DNA of 64,000 bases from Lophium mytilinum (taxonomy: Eukaryota), in contig MU004196.1 in the NCBI GenBank assembly GCA_010093605.1, positions 1,076,606 through 1,140,605 on the forward strand. The letters run 5' to 3'. This document shows, one piece after another, positions 2,479 to 20,200 of the stretch (positions are counted from its first letter, which is position 1; each line of letters begins with the position of its first letter). The position numbers and the translations under genes were made by a program. The notes under the pieces are model-generated. The model did not search any database, had not been told where the DNA came from, and worked only from the letters and a program-made list of their open reading frames with translations.

Positions 2479-4416
2479 CTACATCATCAGCATGTTCTGC
2501 ACGTTTCGTGCGTGTTTGGCCTCCGCCTCCGCCCTCTCCCTCCCCAACTTCTCCAACAAGTACGCCCACGACTGGGGCGTCGGCGCCTTTGCGATGTCTA
2601 GGGACTTCTTGTAACTTGGGCAAAGAACCAGAACCTCCGGTGCCATTGGGGGGACCATTTCCGCCGCTTTTTGGAAGAATTCTTCCTTTCTCTCCGTCTT
2701 CAACCGCGCGTTCTCGTTACGGACCCTCCGAGCTTCCTCTTTCTCGAACTTCTCGATCTTTAGGGCAAACTCTACCCTCTCTGTCGCCAACCTCTGCTTC
2801 TCCTCCAAGTACTGCCTTTTCTCATCCGCCGAGGCGGCATTCAGGTCTGGGAACGTGGTCAAGAACTCGTTAATCGCGTTGTTTAGCTCCGTGGTGTGGA
2901 AGATGCTGGTGCTGAACCGCTCTGTGGCGGGCCCGGCCTTCGTGTAGTTCTTCCAGGAATCTTTAGTACCGGATGGGACACATTTCAGGACTTCAGGCGC
3001 GAGGGCAACGTGTGCTTGACCTAGCCTCTGCTTGATGGTATTGAGCGCGTCCTGCTGCTATAAGACGAGTTAGTAACATTCCAAACTACTCAGAGCCGGA
3101 AAACATACCACAACGAGCTCTGTGCTCATGTGAGCCTGGCACAAACGCTTGCAAAAGGCCCAATACGTCTTCCTCGCGAGCTTGTCCTCACACCCTGTCA
3201 CCTGGCAGCCCTTACGATTACTAAGAAGGTTCGCGTATTGTTCCTCGGAGAGTCCAGGCAGAGGGTCTGGAATCTCGTTGCCGTAGGTATTGACTCGGCT
3301 GTCTCGCCATACTGCGGTGTGATTGGCAAGCAGTGGCATGAAGAACTGCATGTCGCGACATGTGAGAAGGGTGTTCGGGTGACTCCACTTGAAGACGTTG
3401 TTCCAGATACACGCTGATACTGGTGTTCTGACCGGGTTGCTGACGCGGAGTTTAGTAGGTCGAGGGTTTGGGTCTTGCGTGTCCTTTGGCTCAGAGCGCT
3501 TGCGCTTTTTCGAGACGGCCGCCTTGGGTACCTCGTGTTGGATGTGACGGAGGGGCTGTAGAGGCTCAACAGTTTGCGTGGACTGTAAAGAATGAGCCTG
3601 ATCGGTAGATAGAGTCGCGGTGGCAGAGTGGGCGGGCTCATTGAGCTGCTGGAAGGCGGACGTGGGGGCAGGCTGGTACGTTGTGTCGACGTGCTGCTGT
3701 GCGGAAGGTGTGGGTTGGTGGGTAGAGTTAGAAGACTGTCGCATCCAGTTGAGTGGGTTCAGAGCAGTCTGGAGAGGTTGGTGGAGTCGGCTGAAGTGCT
3801 GCTGAGCAGGAACGACAGGTCGGTCGGAGGAGTCAGGAGACGGACGCATCTGGTCGAGGTGCTGTCGAGTTGTTTGGGAAGGCTGGTTGAGCTGGCCAAA
3901 GCGGTACTCGGTAGGAGTGCTGGCTTGGTAAGGATCTTCGAGCGGATGTCGGATGGACTGCTGATACGTCTGCTGGGGAGGAGGCTGGTAGATCTGGCCG
4001 AAGCGCTGCGGGGGGGGAGGGGTGACTCGATGGGCACTGTCCAGCGATTGTCGGGCTGACTGCTGAAGAGGCTCGTGCATCTGGACGAAGTGCTGCTGGG
4101 CAAGAGGGTTGCGGTTCATCGGGTCCTGGATTGGATCGTGTTGTTGCTGAGTTGATCGCGGGTGCTGGTCTAGAGGGCCGTGGGGAAGCAGCCGCTCAGC
4201 CTGGTAGGCATGATAGCGAAAAGGCGGATCTGAGCCGAAACCCTGTTGGCCAGATTGGTCGTGTTGTTGCATAGCGTCGAGGGGTTGACCGGCCGGCTTA
4301 ACAGTCTGGCCGTGTTGCGCATTGCGGATATGGCGACGGAAGTTTAAGTAGCCTTCGACGCCTATCAGAGACCTGGTGGCCTCTTGAGGATCGACCTTGA
4401 AGCTGACATCGCCCAT
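2479..4416 (-). CDS. F-box-like domain protein with Q/P-rich low-complexity N-terminus (2 exons; intron ~3058-3108)
   Basis: ATG at 4416 (MGDVSFK). The segment IWNNVF..WRDSR..PDPLPGLSEEQYANLL..GCQ..C..RKTYWAF.KRLC is typical of a fungal F-box-like family. A GTATGT..CTAAC..TAG intron joins it in frame to the 2479..2862 ORF. Confidence 0.65.
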
Positions 4417-8717: not shown

Positions 8718-11386
8718 CTAATCAGTCAACTCATTCTCTCTTGTGACCTCTTCTCTGCCCTCTTTACCTTTCATGGCTAATAAATTCAACGCGCTTCCTG
8801 CAATGATAAATCCGCATTGATCACCACTCATTGTGTGCTTGGTTTGCACCCTTACCTCACTGCCATCCTTCTTCTTGACAAGTAGCCCCACGCTGCCCTT
8901 TCCGCCACTCTTCAGCACGTCCAGTAAGCCTACAGTACTAACGTCATCGCATGCGTCGATGAGGTCGTAGTCTGTCTCGTTGACAAAAGTCAGGGGCACT
9001 ACACCCTGCTTCTTGAGATTCGTCTCATGGATGCGTGCAAATGACTTCGCGAGAATGACGCGACCACCCAGGTAGCGTGGCTGTAGCGCGGCGTGTTCGC
9101 GCGCACTACCCTCGCCGTAGTTGTGCTCGGCGACGACGAGCCACTCAATGCCTGCGTCGCGCCAGCGCTTCGCAAGATCCGGGATGCCGGATGTGGTGCC
9201 GTCCACATCGTAGGCCGTGTTGACTTCGTCAGTGGCAGCATTGATTGCGCCAATGAGGGTGTTCTCCGATATGTTGGGAAGATGACCTTTGTACTTGAGC
9301 CATGGACCTGCAGCTGAGATGGTATCTGTTGTGCATTGGCCCTTCACCTTATAGAGAACACGAAGGCCGGCGAGTTCCGAGTTGGGGAACGGCGGGAACG
9401 GGTCTAGGAGTGCGAGGCGGGTTGATGAGGGATCAACCTTGACTTCTTCGGAGGGAGTTGGTACGCCCGGTGTAGCGAAGAACTCAGGGTTCCCTTCTGC
9501 GAAACCTGCTGCTGGAAGATCGGAGCCTTTTGGAGGGGAGAAACGGAACGGCGTGCCTGATGGTGTCGGGAGAGTGTCTGTGATCGGATTGAATGTAGTT
9601 GAGCCCGCATAAGACATGGCAGTGACGAGCTCCGGAGACGCGAGGAAATTCATCGTCAACGGATTGCCGTCATTGCGGCCTCGAAAGTTGCGGTTATACG
9701 AGGTGAAAATAGCGTTTGATTCGCCTTTTTTCACGCCGTCAGTCCGCTTCCACTGTCCAATGCAAGGCCCACACGCATTGGCAAGGACAGTTCCACCAGC
9801 AGAAGAGAAAGTCGAAAGGGTATCATCTCGGTCCAGAGTTGCACGGATCTGCTCACTACCTGGCGTTATGAAGAAGTCAGCCTTGGGGGAGAGACCTGCT
9901 GCTGATGCTTGTTTAACAAGATCTTCAGCTCGGGTCATGTCCTGGTATGAACTGTTTGTGCAGCTGCCTATGAGACCCGCACCAAACGTTCTTGGCCAGT
10001 TATTTTCCTCGACTACTGATGCGAATTTGGACAGGGGAGTAGAGAGGTCGGGCGTCATAGGGCCATTGATGTGCGGTTCGAGCTTTGAGAGGTCAATTGT
10101 AATGACCTTATCGTATTGAGCCTCAGAGTCAGCACGCAGAAGGTTCTGGACAGAAGGCGCTGATGCGATGGCTTGTGCCGCTTTAGCAATGGGTTCGCGA
10201 TGAGTAGCCACCAAGTAGGGCACGTGTTGCGCGGAGAACGGGAACAGAGAGGTTGTTGCGCCAACTTCAGCACCCATATTACAGATTGTAGCCATTCCGG
10301 TGCAGCTAAGCGTTTCGACACCAGGCCCGAAGTATTCGATCACGTAACCAGTGCCGCCCTATGTCACTATCAGAAGCTGTTTCAAGGTTATGATTGACGT
10401 GATACTTACTCTCACGGTCAGTTGCCCAGCTAGGTACATTATCACATCCTTAGGAGACGTCCATCCGCTGAGCTCTCCAACAAGTTCGACTCCTAGTATC
10501 TTGGGGGCTTTTAATTCCCATGGGGCATCAACAAGCGCGTCTACAGCATCCGCTCCACCAACGCCGATCGCAATTGCACCTAGACCTCCAGCGTTGGGCG
10601 TATGGCTATCCGTTCCCAGCATCATCAATCCTGGGGCGGAGTAATTTTCCAAGACACTCTGGTGGATGATACCCGCTCCAGGAGGCCAGAACTCAATTCC
10701 GTACTTCTTTGCCGCAGACTCTAGGAAGTCAAAGACTTCCTTATTTCCCGTTATTGATGCTGGCAAATCTGTATCTGCGCCTTTTTCTCCAACAATCATG
10801 TGGTCGCAATGTATACTGGCAGGGACTGCTGTTGACGGCAGTCCACAGGACATGAATTGTAGCAATGCCATCTGCGCCGAAGCATCCTGCATAGCCACTC
10901 GGTCTGGCTTGAGCTTTAGGTTTGCCATGCCCCTGATGTTCGCGCCATTCTGGGTATTCGTGAGGAGTGACTCTTCTGGGTTGTCCAGATGCGAGTATAA
11001 AATCTTCTCGGCAAGAGTCAATTGCCTGCTGTGTCCAAGCACCTTTCGGACTTCGTGCAGCTTCTTGACGAGCTTTTGGTATGGAGGTGTTCGAGAGGCA
11101 ATGTCCACATGGGGGTGGGGTAGGCCAGAGTGGGCCGTGGCTAGATGTCGCCTGTTCAAGATCTTGGAGGGTCGAATAGAGGCGCGTTGGCAGACCTAAT
11201 CTCATAATTAAACATGATTTCAGAGTTAAGCTCTATGTGCGAACAGAGGATGTGTGTTCAGGGTTGAAGCATATAAGGCTGGATTCGACAAAAGCTCAAC
11301 GCGTGCTAGGAGCACCAATGCAAGGCTGGGAGGTTACTTACCCCTATATTAAAGGGTCGCCCCGCCTGAAGAGCCTGCACCCGCAT
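8718..11386 (-). CDS. aco2: Mitochondrial aconitase family protein of the Aco2/AcoB type (homocitrate dehydratase-like); 3 exons
   Basis: Motifs [62 protein letters not shown]. Exon 1 ([21 protein letters not shown] donor) splices to the presequence-like [20 protein letters not shown]. Second intron ~10359-10409. Confidence 0.9.
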
Positions 11387-11997
11387 CGTTGAAAATGTTG
11401 GCGGAGGGGTCGTGTGAGGCAGCGGAGGTGAGGCTATCCACAAAAAGTTCTCGGGATCTCCTCGTGCGATGTCGGCAGCAATTTAATGCTAGCCGGGGAA
11501 GCTGTAGCCAACCACTGGACATGTTTTATAAATATATTGAAAAACGTCTATTATTGTTGTCAAGCTATCTTCCAAATACTCCAAGCCTGAAATACCAACG
11601 CTCGGACGACTTCGACTTCTAGGGGGGTATACATGCCTACAGGGCCATTTTCGTAACAAATCTGCTTTTCTTGATGTGCCGAATATGGCCGTTTAGCATG
11701 GTGTCGCTTCTCCTCCACTCAGCCTCACCAAGTGGATACGTACTTCTCAGCCTGGTCGTCTCCACGAGTTTCTTTCCATCATGCAAGCGTCACACTCCTT
11801 TCATATAGCGTGGGCCGTTCCACCGTGTTACGAAATCCCGAGTTTCAATCACCATTTTACTTCTTGCCATATTAGAGATGACTTCTGCCATCCGTCAAAT
11901 CGACGCAAGTGCCCCGCGCCTATCATCGTGCCCTTTCTATAAAGGCTCTAAAAGCTTATGAGCCTAGTCGAGAGCCTCTTCAACAGCAGTGTCTGCT

Positions 11998-14421
11998 ATG
12001 CTCACTCCGTCAATACGGGTCCTATCCCTAGACGGCGGAGGTGCACGGTGCCTGTCCGGCTTGGTGATTCTCGAGGAGCTCATTCAACACATCGAAGAGG
12101 ATCACCATGACTCTCCTCTAGGAGATTCTAGGCCTTACTACTATTTTGATCTGATATGTGGGACGGAATGGGGTGCTGTCATCGCTCTGATGCTTGGCAG
12201 ATTGAGAATGGTAGACTCCTTGCCCAGATCATTTGAGGTTGCTCTACTCACTATGCTACAACTAGACGATCAACGAATGCATACTCTGGTTCCAACGAAA
12301 TGCATTCCACTACACGCCTTGGTTTTGGGAATCTCGCGATTTCTCTAACTCAGACCGATGCGAGAAGGCTTTGGACGCACTATTTGCAGAGGAACCTTTG
12401 TATGAGGCCCAACCTAAGCAGGGACATGTATGCCACATCGTTGTACTAGTTACCGACCTTGAGAACTTGGGTACTCCAGAGAGGCTCCGCAGTTATACCT
12501 CCAAGACTTACGGAAAAGCGATCGTTAGTAGATGCACTATTTTGCAAGCAGCTTTGGCTTCCATCGCTACTCCAATGCGCACTCGGGGGGTACGTATAGA
12601 CGCAATGCTATGCGTCAGCGCAGCCATAGCGGGATTTAGCAATCCGGCGCTGGAGGCCTTGGACGAAGCAGCATCAATCTGGAGCTCTACCAAAATCTAT
12701 TCTTTCGTCAGCATTGGTACAGGAATACAAGAGCCGAGAGACAGTGCCTCCGCGGGAGGCCGTCCGCGATGGCTGGGCTATCCATCGCCCAAAGCAACGA
12801 TGGGTCTAATGAGAGTAATAACTCACATGATCATCGATCCAGAGCATACAGCAATAGAGCTTTTCAGATTTTCTAGAGCTGCCGGGTTTCTTTGCTCTCG
12901 GTTTACGCTTCCGACCGAATTTACCTCTACTACATACAAGCATGAGTGGACTCCAGTTGCATTTGAGAGGGTTCCAAAACTTACACGGCTTTACCTTGCG
13001 AACTCGGAAATCACGGCCAGCCTAATCGTCTGCGCAAACTCACTCAAACCTAGTAAATCACTCGGGACTGACGGAGAACGTGGAAACCCAGTATTCAGCT
13101 CGGTCGATCCACCTGCTGTCCCTAGCGAGACTATGTTAGATACTCTTGGGCCAGAATTCCTGGTAAAGTGTCCGTCTCTCAAGGCAGTATCAACTCAGAG
13201 CGCACTGTCAGGTACTACAGAACCTTTTGAAGGCATTCTTTTTGACGAGCCAACTGTACGATCTGATCAAAAAGAGTATGTTCCTCTCTACTCTACACGC
13301 ACACGAGCTTTGCTAACCGAACAAGAAATCTAGCTACTGACAACTACATGAAAGGCCTCCGCGCAAGATATCAGCAACTATTCAAAGACGCACCTGAAGA
13401 CATCAGGAAGGTCAAGGTTGCCGTCCTGGACAGCGGGATCGATTCTTCCCACCCTTTCATAGAGGCAAATTGGATTCGCCCTAGGTGGGGTGCTCGAGGG
13501 GAGAACGGACTTCCCCGTAAACTTGATGATGATGGATACATGGATTTCACAACCGAATCTCCTCTCACCAAGAATGGTACAGATACATGCGGCCACGGAA
13601 CCCACGTTGCCGGGATTATTCTACAACTCGCTCCGGACGCTGAACTTCACGTTGGTCGAGTGTTCCGCGACAAGACCTTCAGCAAGAAAACTGACCCCGA
13701 ATGTACCATGCGGATTGCAAAGGTATGTTAGCATCAGCCACTCAAATGCGCCATCACAGTCTAATCATCGGCCAAGGCAATTCGCTATGCCGTGGATGTT
13801 TGGGGAGTAGATGTCATTTCGATGTCCTTTGGCTTCTCCAGCATCCCCGCAGACGTGAAGGAAGCAATTATCTATGCATATTCAAAAGACCGTATTCTAG
13901 TGGCTGCAGCCTCGAACAATGGTAATTCCAAGGTAGGAAATGTTACCTATCCTGCCAGCCATCTTGGACTAGTCATCTGTATCAATGCTGCGAACTATGC
14001 TGGCACACCATACGAGTTCAACCCGCCTGCAACATCTAGTAAAGACAACTTCACAATCCTTGGCGAAGCAGTGAAATCAACTTGGTCAAAGGATGCGAAA
14101 AGAGACGCGAATCAGGAAGAACCGAATATAATGATTGAAGAAGGCGCATGGAAGAGAGCCTCAGGGACATCAGTCGCGACACCCGTAGCATCCGCAGTCG
14201 TAGCCCAGCTCATATATTGGAAAAGGATTCACCGCACTCATATCCGAAACTACCAAATGCTGGAGAACTTTGGGGGCATAAGACAGATGCTCATTAGCAT
14301 GGTCGATCGTGATCTCAAAGATGTCTATCAGTACATCCTCCCCGAAAATCTTTTAGACCCGGACGTAAAAACTGCCATTTCTGGAGTCTTTTCCATGAAA
14401 CTGAGACAAATATACTCCTGA
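11998..14421 (+). CDS. Patatin-like pseudo-phospholipase fused to an intracellular subtilisin-like (S8) protease, HET-Q2-like; 754 aa, 4 exons
   Basis: Exons 11998-12210, 12266-13275, 13326-13722 and 13777-14421 join in frame (introns have GT donors, CTCAC/CTAAC/CTAAT branch sites and TAG/AAG acceptors). Patatin part: LSLDGGGAR, FDLICGTEWG, MLGRLRM, SIGTG. S8 part: VAVLDSG, GHGTHVAG, VISMSFG, AAASN, YPA, SGTSVATP. No signal peptide. Confidence 0.88.
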
Positions 14422-14465
14422 TAGAGGCTGGTTTCAGATATGATCCCAAGTCCGGTCGCGGTGGA

Positions 14466-15341
14466 TCAAGTTTCAATTTTTACTACCAAGCAATCACTGT
14501 CGTCCATCTCGTCTCTGACCGTAGCCATGGTCCAATCCAATGGGATGCTATCTGCATCCATAGCAATACCAAAATCAGCTTCGTCGAGCTCTGCCGATTC
14601 GATCTCCGCCGGAGTGATATCCTCGTCCAAATTGGACTCCGTTCTTTCTCCTTCATGATATGCCGCTCCACTCATGTAATCCTCGCTGTCAACATCCATG
14701 GTCTTCCAGTTGATCTTGATTTTCCGCACACGATACGCGAAGATGAAGTCTGAAGACCCAGCAAATCCCACCGAGTCAAATTTGGAGTTGCTGAACCCGA
14801 CTTGGGGACCTCCTGAGACCGGAATGCCGACCATGGTTCCATTAATTGCAACGGACGCGTCTGCACCAACTTCACGATATTTCTTTCTGAGATTTTCGGC
14901 GCCTCTAGCGACTTTGAATCCAGTGATCATGTATGGAGTTTTCTTCGGGTTGGCCTCGAAGTACTGTTTAACCGTAGGTTGAAGTATGCTAGCCCTGACA
15001 TATTCCGCGAGATTCCAGTCGCTTTTCACGAAGGCTGTCTCCAGCTTGTCAAATTTCAGCACATCGGAATCATCCTTTCCGAAGTGTCCTGATATGTCGC
15101 CACTAATGCCCAATATCATGGCTAAGAACTGTGCCCATATTCCGAGCGAGCCGCCTAACGTCCTGCTCTTTTCGGCTTCCCAGTTTTCTTGATAGCTTTC
15201 AAGTATCGGAGGAGCGGGGTTCAGCGGCTCATAGATGGCCGAACCGGGAGACTTGAGGTCTGCGATAATCTCCCCAATCTTGATGGTGCCTGGGGCGTAG
15301 TCAAAATTCGGCATCTCGAAATAAGCTTTTGTTGGTGCCAT
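14466..15341 (-). CDS. Fungal gasdermin (RCD-1/HET-Q1-like pore-forming protein); 291 aa, intronless
   Basis: Fungal gasdermin signature blocks in order: YFEMPNFDY..IKIGEII, GIWAQFL, FDKLET, YMITGFKVARG, GIPVSGGP, SSDFIFAYRVRKI, followed by an acidic C-terminal tail. It lies next to an S8 protease gene. Confidence 0.85.
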   Translation of the reverse strand: MAPTKAYFEMPNFDYAPGTIKIGEIIADLKSPGSAIYEPLNPAPPILESYQENWEAEKSRTLGGSLGIWAQFLAMILGISGDISGHFGKDDSDVLKFDKLETAFVKSDWNLAEYVRASILQPTVKQYFEANPKKTPYMITGFKVARGAENLRKKYREVGADASVAINGTMVGIPVSGGPQVGFSNSKFDSVGFAGSSDFIFAYRVRKIKINWKTMDVDSEDYMSGAAYHEGERTESNLDEDITPAEIESAELDEADFGIAMDADSIPLDWTMATVRDEMDDSDCLVVKIET

Positions 15342-15902
15342 ATTAGCAGAGGACTCGCAAAATCGGGAATGTTGAGAGATTCGAGCCTTCTTCCTACATC
15401 TATATCTATTCATGCAATGCGATGGCCCAAGGCATCACCGACAAGGCTGAGAATCGGTCGCATCTGACCGCTGCGTTCTATTGGATAACGACATGGGTAA
15501 ATATGCAGCTCCGTCTCCCCGCCTCACTTTATGCTGTCTTTCGGACAAATGTGTGGTTCAGGTGCTCTATGATGCGTTTTAGCGGAGAGAACCTCGGCCT
15601 TGGTTCAGCATAGCAGGCCAATGATATGGGGAAGGGAAACGCGAGTCGCTCAGCTGGCTCTGCAGGTGGGTGAGCCCGAGGAAGGCAACTGGTTGCCCGA
15701 CTGGCATCCTCGTATTCTGCAGACCGCCAGCTAAGAGGCCTAATCTTCCCAGATTTGACCACGAGGATCTCTCCGAGCTCATCATCGTCTGTTGTTGAAC
15801 TATTCCGTCGCCGCAATCCACCTTTCGCAACCCGCGTTTGTGTCTCTCACCTTCGACAGGCGGGATCCGTAGTCTTACGACTAGGAAGTCCGGTTGCTTA
15901 GG

Positions 15903-16661
15903 ATGGATCGTTCCACTACAGCGGTACTGTCATAACAGAGTCGTTCTTCTTGCAAGGAATAAGCTGACGTCCTCCAGTATTACCAAGCTATGTATGATCG
16001 AGCTCAGTTGCAGTCTGTACAGCTCTACCAGGTCACATGCGTCAATTGCCAGACAACTCACATCATGCGATATGACGAACGGACTCGGCCTCACAAGGCT
16101 ATCTGCGCCTACTGTTCGAGATCTCTCGCTTCTTCTGTTCTTGAGATCGTGACTGCATGCCTCAAATGCGGAACGGCTCATTATATAGAACCACACGAAC
16201 GATCGGATTCTCGTAAGAGCCTGTGTCGAGTCTGCGGAAACCACCTCCCGCCAACTTTCAAGGACGACTCGGTCGTGTCGCAGGCCGTAGAGCTCGACTG
16301 GGTGAGATGTCTTAATTGCGGCGGCATTCACCACTTGCGCTCAGAAGAACGACGGCAGCCCCACCTAGCTGTTTGCGGATTCTGCAATAAACATCTTGGA
16401 CCATCTGTCAAAGAGCATATGCTAGCTGAGCATTCCAGACATCTGCAGAGTGTCCAGTGTTTCAACTGCAAATATACCCATTACTTTTCTAGAGACGAGC
16501 AAGCACAGCCTCACAAGGCCAATTGCGGATACTGTGGGCAATCTCTTTCGCGCTCTGTGGAGGAGGCTCTGATTGGTGTCGGCTCAGCGATCGGTGGTGC
16601 GCTCGTAACTGCATTGGCGATGCTGTTTGCCGCTGCCAATGCCATCTCAGGCGCTTTATGA
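15903..16661 (+). CDS. Unknown protein with four CxxC-x18-CxxC zinc-ribbon-like repeats and a C-terminal hydrophobic helix
   Basis: ORF 15990..16661 plus a probable 21-nt first exon (ATG 15903; intron 15924-15977, GTACTG..CTGAC..CAG). Repeats: CVNC..CAYC, CLKC..CRVC, CLNC..CGFC, CFNC..CGYC. Tail: ALIGVGSAIGGALVTALAMLFAAANAISGAL. Confidence 0.75.
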
Positions 16662-17271: not shown

Positions 17272-20200
17272 CTACATATCAATTGTCTCATTGAACCTCA
17301 GCACACCATTGCCCTTCAAGAAACCATCCACGCCCTGGGGCACCTGATATGAAGATGGTGCAGCGATGGCGAGGGGCCCGCGCTGGGGAGTGTTCGCGTC
17401 CGAGATGTCAGTGATGAGGACGAGGCCAGCGGTTTTGATGGATTCGATTAGGGCGGGGGCAAGATCCTGAGTGGTGTTAGTCCTTCGCCAGGGATAATGA
17501 GGAGGCGTGTAGTGAGCACGAACCAGTAATCTCGAGCTACAGATCAAGCCCATGAAGTTATTGTCTCTCGCGATCTGGACAGCCTCTTTGACCGAAATCG
17601 TGGTGCGGCCACTGCTCTGCACTTTCAAAGGATCGTTACTAGAACTAGTAGCGTCGGCACCGAGCTCGTTGCAGAGAAGAACAGGATCTGTTGAATATTA
17701 GCTCTATGTTCACAGGATCCCACGAGGGGCTGACTTACAGTTCGGCTGCTTCCAATTCAGTGCGGTGCAAATGTCCTGATTGAAGCTCGAGAACACAATT
17801 GACCTGAGAAAGCCATCTTTCTGTCCCCTTAGATGCCTCGCGTGCTCAAACACAATCGACAGCAGTGCATCCGCAAAGTCATTGATATTTGGCGTCGGGC
17901 CTAAGCGCAAGCTTTCCTCCTCCCGCCGACTTGGGTACAGTACGTGAAGCTCGACATGGATATGCGCAGGAAGTACAGCGAGAGCTTCACGGAGCGTCAT
18001 GAACGACGTAGCTAGGATTTGATGAATTTGGGAGATGTTGACTCCAGGAGTATTTTGCAGAGTGGATGTTGCCTTGGAGCTAGAAGCGCTCTGTGAAGCT
18101 CCAATGCTGGCAAACTGATCGTAGGTGAGGATATTGACAGGAATACCGAGACCTTGATACGTTATCTTCCATTGTGGGTAAAGCACTGGAACGCCGTCAC
18201 TGGTCAATTGAACAAATAGGCGGGCATATTCGCCCGATAAGCTCGATCCAGTGATAAGGGCTGTTGGATGGGAGTCGGATTGACTGGTTGCTTTCCAGTA
18301 TGTTGCGAAGTGTGTAATCTCAAGGGGGATACCGTGGAAGGGTTTCACGACCTGGAAGTCGAAACTTAGTCGCCCAATTGCACGGAGCCGAGGGTCGAAG
18401 AGCTCAAGATGCCATTGGCCTGAGCTACTTGTCTCATTTGTGAATATCTTCGAAGAGGCGACACTGCGCGCAATTACCTTAGAGCCGAATGTTGGGTACA
18501 CATCGAAGTCAATGGCAAAGGTATCGAGATTCTCAATCTGGAATGAGATGACCTTGAATTCGTCTTGGATTGGTAGCATAATGTTTCGTGGGATGAGGTC
18601 TGAGGATTTCGAGGAAATAGTGAGGCGAGCGGCTGGATATTTATGGTCGTCGTAGAACTGAAGTGCATCCGCGCCCAGATTCTCGAAATTAATCACCACA
18701 AAGGTCTTAGTATCCAGGAAATTATGGCCATACCGTCTCAGTGGGATTATAGGCGGTGGAAGAATGAACTCCGGAATACCTTCTCCCTCTCCGAGATCCA
18801 TAGGGCCTGGTCCGGTAGTGGATTGGCCTGTGCTCAGAATCTGCGGGGACACCTTCTTCGGGGTAGCAAGGCCAACTCCTCTCCCAATGGAAGCAAGCAT
18901 TTTCATGCACTCAAAGTGGCCTTCCCAAGTGGCGTAGTACATCGCAGACAAGCCTTTCTCGTCCACAATATCCACGCTGACCCCGCATACCAAGAGCACC
19001 CTGAGACATTCGACATGTCCTTCGCTGGCGGCATGGAAAAGAGGCGTCCACTGGTATAGCTTATCGGACTGGTTGAGATCTGCACCGTATTTCTGCAGCA
19101 GCAAAAGCATCTCAGGGTCCTTCCCAGATCTTGCAACGAGATGTTGAGGATAGAGGCCTTCAGCGTCCGGAAGCATCTCAGCATGCGCTTGAAGAAGCAG
19201 CTCTACAATGGGTATGGAGCCGTGTTGGCATGCCAGATTCAATGGAATATGTTCCGATGGACCTAGTTGCTGAATTTGCGCCCCATTAGAGAGAAGGGTC
19301 TGAACACAGTCCAGTTGGGAATGGACGATCGCATGGATCAAAGGCGTAAAGTTGTCCTGGTCCTTGAAATTGACAGTGTCAGGGGCTGCATTGATTAGTT
19401 CCTGGACCAAGTCGACATGGCCATGCATGCAAGCATAGTGCAATGGTATCCTTCCATATACATCCAATGCCTTGACATTGACGTGTGCGGACAATCCTAT
19501 CTGGAGGATAACGCCTCGCCCGCAGATGGCCGCTTTATGGAGACAATTCCTTTCGTTGATTTCGTCTTCCTGGCTGAGGTTGACACGATTGGTGTCTAGC
19601 ATGAGTCGTAAGGCATTTTCGGGGGCGTCTTCGATAGTGCTTAAAAAAGCCCTTGATATGCGTTCCTGCGCGTCAACCAATGAAAAGATCCGGGCCAGAC
19701 ACTCTTCTATTTTCGCAGTATTAGCAGTGGTGATCGCTTGGGTCATCTGATTGTCCAACTCCATATCGCCATCCTGAGATGTGTCGGTTGGTGGCTGGGT
19801 TATCGACATTGGGTATTGCATCTTGTCGCCTTCTGCCCATCCTGAGAAGTCTAACAGAGCTTGCGTTGCTTGATCGGACAGGCTGCTGATAACGTCGCGA
19901 TTGAAGCAGGGCTGCACCTCAACAGCACGCGATAGGTAGAGTTGCTTCTCGCGCGACTGGCATTTGGGTCAGCCGGAGTTGCGTCCAAGGAGTCTGATGG
20001 CCGACCTTGGATGTTTTGTCCCACTAAAACATGTTAGTAGTCTCAAGACGACAGTGGCAGGTGTTGAGCGGACCTTTTTCAATATCTTCGAGAAGGCCGT
20101 AGCGTTGACCTCGACAAATTGCTGCTACCGTTAGTACTTACACATTGATAACGATGATCAAAATCACCTGGAGCTTGTTCAGATCTATGCTGAACTGCTT

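Follow-up and report, generated by a model that had tools for sequence, protein, structure and literature searches.

A patatin-fold domain without its catalytic dyad is fused to a gasdermin-associated subtilase in Lophium mytilinum

The patatin-S8 gene and its gasdermin neighbour

A 64,000-nucleotide stretch of the genome of the fungus Lophium mytilinum (assembly GCA_010093605.1, contig MU004196.1, positions 1,076,606 to 1,140,605 of the forward strand; hereafter the window, numbered from its first letter) carries a gene for a HET-Q2-like protein, here called patatin-S8, in which a patatin-fold domain is joined through a disordered linker to an S8 subtilase with an intact triad. The gene has four exons and starts with an ATG at 11998, and it is convergent with a gasdermin-like gene (Table 1). 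We describe the loss of both catalytic residues from the patatin-fold domain and the recurrence of that loss in a clade of related proteins, and we weigh what the altered domain may do.

Table 1. Features of the patatin-S8 gene and its gasdermin-like neighbour in the window
Feature	Position	Strand	Remarks
Patatin-S8 (HET-Q2-like) coding region	11998-14421	+	Exons 11998-12210, 12266-13275, 13326-13722 and 13777-14421 (stop included); 754 aa
Patatin-fold domain, predicted catalytically dead	11998-13057	+	Residues 1-335; Pfam PF01734 on exon 1, AlphaFold2, Foldseek
Glycine-rich loop DGGGAR	12031-12048	+	Residues 12-17; kept
Nucleophile elbow GTEWG	12160-12174	+	Residues 55-59; E57 (GAA, 12166-12168) replaces the catalytic Ser
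Intron 1	12211-12265	+	55 nt, GT..AG, phase 0, within the patatin domain; splice model and RNA contig
V188-S189-A190	12614-12622	+	Occupies the catalytic x-Asp-Gly column; S189 is AGC 12617-12619, A190 is 12620-12622
Linker, first part	13058-13275	+	Residues 336-407; disordered about 338-406; holds L396-F397-D398 (13238-13246)
Intron 2	13276-13325	+	50 nt, GT..AG, CTAAC branch site, splits the Glu408 codon (GA/A); splice model and RNA contig
S8 subtilase module	13326-14418	+	Includes intron 3; Pfam PF00082 on exon 3 (3e-12) and exon 4 (1e-11); subtilisin matches
S8 catalytic residues	D443 13429-13431; H498 13594-13596; S672 14170-14172; oxyanion Asn N587 13915-13917	+	754-aa model
Intron 3	13723-13776	+	54 nt, GT..AG, within the S8 module; splice model and RNA contig
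Extra "intron" of the deposited model	13935-13974	+	40 nt; frameshift, protein ends before catalytic Ser672; unspliced in RNA contig
Gasdermin-like gene	14466-15341 (coding 14469-15341)	-	291 aa and stop, no intron; covered without a joint by RNA contig

The S8 protease HET-Q2 was shown to activate the gasdermin HET-Q1 by a cut behind F238, and a protease gene was reported within 10 kb of 80% of the 1,884 fungal gasdermin genes (Clavé et al. 2022, PMC8851545). Long extra termini are borne by 1,499 of the 1,601 HET-Q2-like proteases, with 18 annotated architectures (PMC8851545). The pair in the window is among those catalogued: Dataset S1 of that paper lists KAF2491073.1 (protease) and KAF2491074.1 (het-Q1 homologue), and Dataset S2 gives KAF2491073.1 an N-terminal "Patatin" and a "Peptidase_S8", one of five such rows, each of the five having a het-Q1 homologue as its partner in Dataset S1, a set chosen by neighbourhood (PMC8851545). 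The patatin-S8 architecture is thus already on record, which answers a question left by an earlier note on this DNA, made from the sequence alone. The words patatin and phospholipase are absent from the main text of PMC8851545, figures not covered, and the dead site is thus undiscussed there. Our literature searches found no paper that notes a dead patatin site in such proteins and none on catalytically inactive patatin in the NOD-like receptors (NLRs) of fungi; the papers on patatin pseudoenzymes among the matches listed included none on fungi. The new elements here are a loss of the dyad that is conserved within one clade, a corrected gene model, and a motif in the linker.

The structure of the gene was checked by aligning, on 11900-15400, the contigs of one public sequencing run (X1, the sole run found with this stretch). 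A single contig of 5,184 nucleotides (depth 48.6) omits exactly the three introns of Table 1 and otherwise shows zero differing letters; it therefore derives from RNA, and neither strand nor expression level nor rare isoforms can be read from it. The patatin and S8 parts form one in-frame spliced gene, and the fusion is real. That they are two separate genes joined in error can be virtually discounted: apart from an intron at the domain boundary nothing favours it, whereas the contig joins 13275 to 13326 in frame, which refutes it, the deposited gene model has the identical join, and the fusion recurs in three relatives (P0089, P0092, and P0093) and at three metagenome loci (L001, L002, and L006) described below. 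The earlier note had read the frame as open and spliced in phase into the S8 exon, within what is the Glu408 codon, and had proposed a check of RNA across that intron; the contig bears this out. In its description of the patatin domain the note had omitted the 55-nucleotide intron that interrupts it, an intron placed identically at loci L001, L002, and L005.

The deposited protein (P0002, 625 residues) shares these three introns and is identical to our 754-residue model over its first 590 residues, after which the removal of a further 40 nucleotides shifts the frame. This truncated type of protein, without the catalytic Ser, is the form in Dataset S2 of PMC8851545. We take the 754-residue form to be correct because the RNA contig has no joint at 13935-13974 and because, without this removal, the frame stays open and the Pfam S8 match runs on as far as position 254 of the 288 in the profile. 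This corrects the public gene model, from which the catalytic serine of the protease was missing: the S8 triad and the oxyanion Asn are intact, and the protein ends 82 residues beyond S672. The S8 part of P0089, introduced below, likewise aligned with subtilases at a Z score of about 30. Pfam searches of the four exon translations returned Patatin and Peptidase_S8 only, with no NACHT, NB-ARC, NOD, or repeat domain.

Downstream, 44 nucleotides separate the stop codon of patatin-S8 from that of the gasdermin-like gene. The inferred product of the latter matched RCD-1-1 (8jyz_A, E 1e-7) and RCD-1-2 (E 1.7e-6) in a phmmer search of the PDB, in agreement with the earlier note, which had supposed a gasdermin neighbour. 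The protease lies within 10 kb of a het-Q1 homologue, the arrangement that defines a HET-Q2-like/gasdermin cluster. As in the HET-Q2/HET-Q1 system of Podospora anserina, an S8 subtilase with an intact triad adjoins a fungal gasdermin. The two systems differ in that HET-Q2 is a bare protease of 366 residues (catalytic D35), whereas the protease in the window has an N-terminal extension of 405 residues (dead patatin and linker), and in that HET-Q2 and HET-Q1 are idiomorphs in P. anserina, whereas the genes in the window are convergent neighbours.

Loss of the catalytic dyad in a conserved fold

The Pfam Patatin profile (PF01734) matched exon 1 with 30.9 bits (cut-off 27.7) over profile positions 1-45 of 191 only, and exon 2 alone had no Pfam match at E<=1; in the ortholog P0089 the same profile scored 35.8 bits over positions 1-174 of 191. 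Structure prediction covered the whole domain. The AlphaFold2 model of P0002, built on a 56-row alignment, had predicted local distance difference test (pLDDT) values mostly above 85 across residues 1-335, and that of P0089 had a mean pLDDT of 84.9. When the window domain was compared with the PDB by Foldseek, the CapV filament bound to cyclic GMP-AMP (8zr9_A) came first (E 4e-13), followed by patatin (1oxw_C, 6.2e-13), CapE (9ion_B, 6.7e-12), iPLA2-beta (7.4e-10), and PlpD (3.7e-9), with template modeling (TM) scores on the target of about 0.67-0.73 for CapV, patatin, and CapE. Residues 6-341 of P0089 gave, by structural alignment (VIA-align), a Z score of 25.9 against patatin 1oxw_A (295 aligned residues, root-mean-square deviation 3.1), 25.2 against iPLA2-beta, and 25.0 against CapV.

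Within this predicted fold the scaffold motifs are in place: FDLICG, the MLGRLRM that closes exon 1 at 12210, and, in exon 2, QAALASIATP, CVSAAIAGFSNP, and SIGTG. In an alignment by phmmer of 164 patatin-domain proteins (that of the window and 163 others), E57 of the window stands in the column of the nucleophilic Ser, and S189-A190 stands in the D-G column, where canonical relatives have V-D-G. A separate phmmer alignment of exon 1 with solved structures placed E57 against AbCapV residue S58, which PDB entry 9kej carries in mutated form ("S58A"). Of the features of an active enzyme, the domain therefore has the DGGGxR loop and has neither the Ser of GxSxG nor the Asp of DG[GA]. These substitutions are neither chance nor a sequencing error, as the RNA contig agrees letter for letter and relatives repeat the same changes. 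Judged from sequence and predicted structure, the patatin domain is folded yet catalytically dead, its Ser-Asp dyad replaced by Glu57 and Ser189. The earlier note had listed the kept glycine-rich loop and scaffold motifs, all of which were found, and had read the elbow as GTEWG and the catalytic DG position as altered, as the alignments confirmed.

To place these substitutions among relatives we scanned 1.84 billion representative sequences with P0002 by HMMER, obtaining 8,457 hits at E<=0.001, six of them at E<=1e-30. The complete ortholog P0089 (725 residues, 43% identical) has both patatin and S8 parts, with GSEWG at the elbow and I-S-A in the Asp column. P0093, also patatin and S8, has GSEWG and F-A-A; P0091, a 108-residue fragment that is 87% identical, has GTEWG; and the patatin-S8 protein of Aspergillus caelatus (P0092) has GTGMG, with Glu in the Asp column. 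All of eight further fragments of 305-395 residues that match exon 2 have S or A in that column. A scan of metagenome contigs with an alignment of exon 2 added six loci. L001 has GSEWG and V-S-A; L002, L003, and L006, one locus in near-identical genomes, have GTGFG and V-S-A; L005 has GTGFG and I-S-A; and L004 has GSGLG and I-D-S. The glycine-rich loop is degenerate in relatives within the clade (DAGGVK, DGGSAR, DDGGIR, and DAGDAK). Searches with a word index, which limited what they could find, were less productive than the HMMER scan: exon 2, restricted to longer proteins, matched only itself (1 of 4,737 candidates); the alignment A1 of exon-2-type sequences, restricted likewise, gave no match, although the HMMER scan had found relatives; and residues 1-410 matched 87 patatin proteins, none of which had an S8 domain except the query.

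Among 43 patatin domains placed in a maximum-likelihood tree (a quick search, with support from the Shimodaira-Hasegawa-like approximate likelihood ratio test (SH-aLRT) only, and with a GTGTG-type patatin family as outgroup), all those fused to S8 formed one clade of 17 rows (SH-aLRT 100), within which a Glu-Trp subclade comprised 12 rows (SH-aLRT 99). The elbow is visible in nine of the 17 rows and has Ser in none (E in four, G in five), and the Asp column holds D in just two of the 17. Among the 11 stored proteins of the Glu-Trp clade, the Asp column has S in nine and A in two (P0093 and P0127). Elbows without Ser are frequent outside the clade as well: the 156 visible elbows had S in 82, G in 68, E in four, and N in two, in a sample that was gathered with this query and is hence biased.

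The presence of a Ser and a carboxylate in exchanged positions of the dyad raises the idea of a rearranged catalysis, for example a swapped dyad in which Ser189 would be the nucleophile and Glu57 the base. The elbow Glu-Trp in all five clade members with an N-terminus and the nine of 11 Ser residues in the Asp column fit such a scheme. Nevertheless, P0093 and P0127 have Ala there, and the sister clade pairs an elbow Gly with a Ser in the Asp column, so that the pair is not co-conserved. The elbow geometry and the oxyanion hole of patatins are, moreover, built for a nucleophile at the elbow, and we know of no patatin-fold enzyme with a swapped site. We find a swapped dyad scarcely credible.

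The scaffold has many invariant positions, alignment A1 showing 21 invariant columns. Between L002 and L006, which are 97-99% identical in DNA, the ratio of nonsynonymous to synonymous substitution rates (dN/dS, Nei-Gojobori) was 0, 0.31, and 0.34 for the patatin exons, or about 0.28 when pooled by hand (14 nonsynonymous and 14 synonymous changes), values that come from few changes in the sister clade of the GTGFG type and leave the lineage of the window outside the comparison; the corresponding values were 0.56 and 0.31 for the S8 exons and 0.23 for the gasdermin. The open frame, the spliced transcript, the predicted fold, the substitutions shared across the clade, and the ratio of about 0.3 in the sister lineage support the view, already taken in the earlier note, that the patatin domain is a retained pseudoenzyme and not a product of decay.

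The other Patatin-S8 rows of Dataset S2 of PMC8851545 (Lophiotrema nucula, A. caelatus, A. fumigatiaffinis, and Pseudogymnoascus sp.) have the same domain order and likewise lie beside a het-Q1 homologue. The L. nucula protein has GSEWG and no Asp, and both Aspergillus proteins have GTGMG with Glu in the Asp column, that of A. fumigatiaffinis differing in that it continues into a P-loop NTPase (NLR-like) tail of 2,031 residues. The Pseudogymnoascus protein differs in retaining GTSTG and DGG (PMC8851545). The earlier note had asked whether loss of the Ser and Asp is conserved among homologues, and had held that homologues with GxSxG and DGG would refute its reading. The loss holds within the window's own clade, none of whose nine visible elbows has Ser, and it does not extend to Pseudogymnoascus, the one of the five Dataset S2 rows in which both motifs are kept.

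A separate observation concerns the family that served as outgroup. P0009, P0013, P0014, and P0018-P0071 belong to a large and well-conserved family of fungal patatin-like proteins of about 580-690 residues, found in many ascomycete genera, in which the elbow reads GTGTG (Ser to Gly); some records are annotated "calcium-independent phospholipase A2-gamma". Like the window domain, these proteins (e.g., P0009, P0013, P0039, and P0064) have a patatin fold without the nucleophilic Ser, but they differ from it in keeping an Asp in the dyad column (F-[HIL]-D-[DE]-G..FNP), in having no S8 part, and in their place outside the clade of S8-fused domains. The family looks, by its sequences, like a second, widespread patatin pseudoenzyme.

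A putative regulatory role for the dead domain

The order of a patatin-S8 gene and a convergent gasdermin gene is found also at L001, L002, and L006, that is, at two further independent loci. Between the two domains of the protease lies a linker whose disorder is predicted by pLDDT values below 50 (residues 338-406 in P0002 and 344-384 in P0089). L396-F397-D398 sits at the end of this disordered stretch, right ahead of the first S8 helix and about 45 residues before the catalytic Asp, and L396 and F397 are invariant in all nine rows of alignment A1. Among the 43 S8 hits that have 70 or more residues upstream, 18 carry a motif [LF]F[DE] at 43-53 residues before the catalytic Asp, regardless of which N-terminal domain they have, as compared with 12 of 1,006 windows of the same proteins taken as background; the sequences are related, so that a binomial p overstates their independence. 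Carriers of the motif include P0089, P0095, P0115, P0139, P0184, P0194, P0206, P0228, and P0130.

The LFD of the linker resembles the mapped site in HET-Q1, where cleavage by HET-Q2 requires L237 and F238 and falls between F238 and A239 (PMC8851545, PMC13475620). Because HET-Q1 is cut after L237-F238, and because HET-Q2, with its catalytic residue at D35, begins about where the motif would fall, we propose that the Phe-Asp bond of the linker may be a self-processing or pseudosubstrate site. The text of PMC8851545 and PMC13475620 contains no wording on self-processing, and none of the papers listed by a literature search on self-cleavage of HET-Q2 mentions HET-Q2.

What, then, might a dead lipase fold do at the front of a protease? 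Since it has been kept in related fungi, it is probable that the domain controls the protease and does not cleave lipids. The earlier note had proposed a sensor for lipids or other ligands, or a decoy, that would gate cleavage of the gasdermin; the present results do not discriminate among sensor, decoy, autoinhibitor, membrane anchor, and oligomerization module. We read the domain as a regulatory module by analogy, because other N-terminal modules are thought to restrain the protease and because a CHAT protease from which the TPR domain had been removed was able to process its gasdermin (PMC8851545). HET-Q2/HET-Q1 and Q2L-6/Q1-6 are the only pairs for which cleavage of a gasdermin tail by a neighbouring protease has been demonstrated (PMC8851545, PMC13475620). 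Our best explanation as a whole, to which we give slightly better than an even chance, is that patatin-S8 is a HET-Q2-like subtilase gated by a patatin pseudoenzyme as its sole N-terminal domain, and that cleavage in the linker at LFD leads to activation of the gasdermin. The dead patatin would take the part played by TPR, ANK, WD40, or NOD modules in other HET-Q2-like proteins, holding the protease inactive until a signal (a lipid, a small ligand, or a protein) arrives. Release would probably involve the exposed, disordered linker: self-cleavage, or cleavage in trans after clustering, between the Phe and the Asp would free the S8 domain, which would then cut the inhibitory C-terminal tail off the neighbouring gasdermin.

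A more specific variant is suggested by CapV and CapE (8zr9, 9kej, and 9ion), effectors of the cyclic-oligonucleotide-based antiphage signaling system (CBASS) that are the best structural matches to the window domain (TM about 0.68-0.73). They are activated by cyclic nucleotides and form filaments, and they show that the patatin fold can act as an assembly switch triggered by a ligand. Unlike the window domain they are active lipases (S58 in AbCapV), and the resemblance is one of fold only; patatin itself matches the window domain equally well (6.2e-13), and there is therefore no specific kinship with CBASS. By analogy with these proteins, a lipid or nucleotide-like danger signal might cluster the patatin-fold domains without catalysis, the clustered S8 domains would cut one another's exposed linkers between the conserved Leu-Phe and Asp, a mimic of the site cut in the gasdermin, and the freed protease would activate the gasdermin. 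We regard an assembly switch of this kind as distinctly unlikely; if true, it would make the locus a receptor-free pyroptosis module gated by a pseudoenzyme, and [LF]F[DE] a general activation site of HET-Q2-like proteases with any N-terminal domain.

Alternatively, the domain could be a targeting or recruiting scaffold whose affinity for lipid, membrane, or gasdermin places a constitutively competent protease near its membrane-acting substrate. Patatin-fold enzymes act at membranes, the domain keeps its entire fold (in the window also the glycine-rich loop), and the 754-residue protein has no repeat or NOD sensor domain, all of which would suit a scaffold. However, unchecked protease activity beside a co-expressed gasdermin would be lethal unless otherwise controlled, and the RNA data cover both genes; the degenerate glycine-rich loops of relatives also speak against it. 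A scaffold is in our judgment unlikely, yet not negligible.

The domain could also be an integrated decoy that mimics an active fungal patatin lipase targeted by antagonist effectors or mycoviruses, with binding or modification of the decoy triggering the protease. The use of dead target copies is a known principle of plant NLRs, and the window domain is predicted to be dead yet structurally faithful. Moreover, in fungal NLRs such as PLP-1 an active patatin domain is the effector of cell death (PMC12881547). PLP-1 (patatin, NB-ARC, and TPR) resembles patatin-S8 in having an N-terminal patatin fold in a fungal cell-death protein and requires its patatin activity for death (PMC12881547), whereas the protein in the window is without the dyad and without a NOD or repeat domain, and its executioner is the gasdermin. 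On the other hand, many fungal relatives with other architectures also have a patatin without Ser (G in 68 of the 156 visible elbows), so that a missing Ser does not single out a decoy. Our literature searches found no effector that targets fungal patatins, and we know of none. We rate a decoy as very unlikely.

Several observations weigh against gating of the protease by a retained pseudoenzyme, in addition to the narrow basis of the dN/dS values. The patatin part diverges faster than its partners: between the window and L001 it is 43% identical, as compared with 54% for S8 and 54% for the gasdermin. At L006 (about 2780) the patatin exon has a frame-breaking deletion of 86 nucleotides relative to L002 (6420-6505). 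It could reflect either a polymorphism of the presence/absence type or a fault of the assembly, and it can imply that the gene is lost or broken in some individuals. Given the intact motifs of the Pseudogymnoascus protein (PMC8851545), the ancestral domain may have been an active co-effector, and what remains of it a scaffold. Regulation, ligand binding, and self-cleavage are drawn by analogy. Of the 43 long S8 hits, 25 lack the motif [LF]F[DE], among them P0092, the patatin-S8 protein from Aspergillus. The AlphaFold2 models of P0002 and P0089 offer no confident arrangement of the domains (predicted TM scores of 0.55 and 0.60), and the C-terminal part of the gasdermin in the window has no LF, the candidate cut sites being A-A-Y-H or A-D-F-G. 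Finally, the earlier note had asked whether patatin-S8 genes always adjoin a gasdermin: they do at L001, L002, and L006, whereas the 5,505 nucleotides of L005 hold a patatin-S8 gene and no gasdermin open reading frame (ORF) detectable with a small, four-sequence hidden Markov model. The contigs of L003 and L004 end too early to show whether a gasdermin is present. A complex prediction for the S8 part of P0089 (385-725) with its own dead patatin part (1-343) scored 0.00 and returned no answer, which speaks neither for nor against.

Some of the same observations, namely the faster divergence, the degenerate glycine-rich loops and the frame-breaking deletion at L006, and the one relative with an active dyad, would be expected if the domain were the decaying relic of a once active lipase effector, carried along ahead of S8 in one frame. 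Yet about 335 residues have stayed open and foldable in lineages that are just 28-43% identical, many scaffold positions are invariant (as in the 21 columns of A1), and the dN/dS is about 0.3. One would, furthermore, expect a useless N-terminus of 335 residues to have been lost or disrupted, given that there are short forms of HET-Q2 (366 residues, catalytic D35). We therefore hold a relic to be highly improbable, and return to the putative pseudoenzyme regulator.

To our knowledge, the fungal gasdermin-activating proteases studied so far are only the bare HET-Q2 and the artificially truncated CHAT protease. In one clade, the sole candidate control module is a lipase fold whose chemistry appears to be lost and whose shape is kept. 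Patatin-S8 would thus add a natural conversion of an enzyme to a regulator within a cell-death pathway of the immune type, and the LFD motif of the linker offers a candidate activation mechanism that may apply to many HET-Q2-like proteins.

Flanking genes

Three neighbours of the pair in the window, an aconitase-like, a double-zinc-ribbon, and an ankyrin ORF, had no match by tblastn in L001-L006. As these neighbours were not found there, the patatin-S8/gasdermin pair would travel as a unit, which suggests either that the pair is mobile or that the genes around it are replaced over time. L005 has a second S8-like gene on the opposite strand (2964-3672), where other loci carry the gasdermin, and L006 has an insertion of 27 nucleotides in the first intron relative to L002.

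On the far side of the gasdermin in the window, and divergent from it, an ORF at 15990-16658 (+) encodes four CxxC...CxxC repeats and a hydrophobic C-terminal tail; it matches the Pfam double zinc ribbon with 27.4 bits (cut-off 27.3), and the same RNA contig reaches over it. The flanking ORFs at 8718-11195 (-) and 17710-19968 (-) read, from their translations alone, like an aconitase-type enzyme and an ankyrin-repeat protein, respectively. If these readings are true, the cell-death pair is embedded among ordinary genes.

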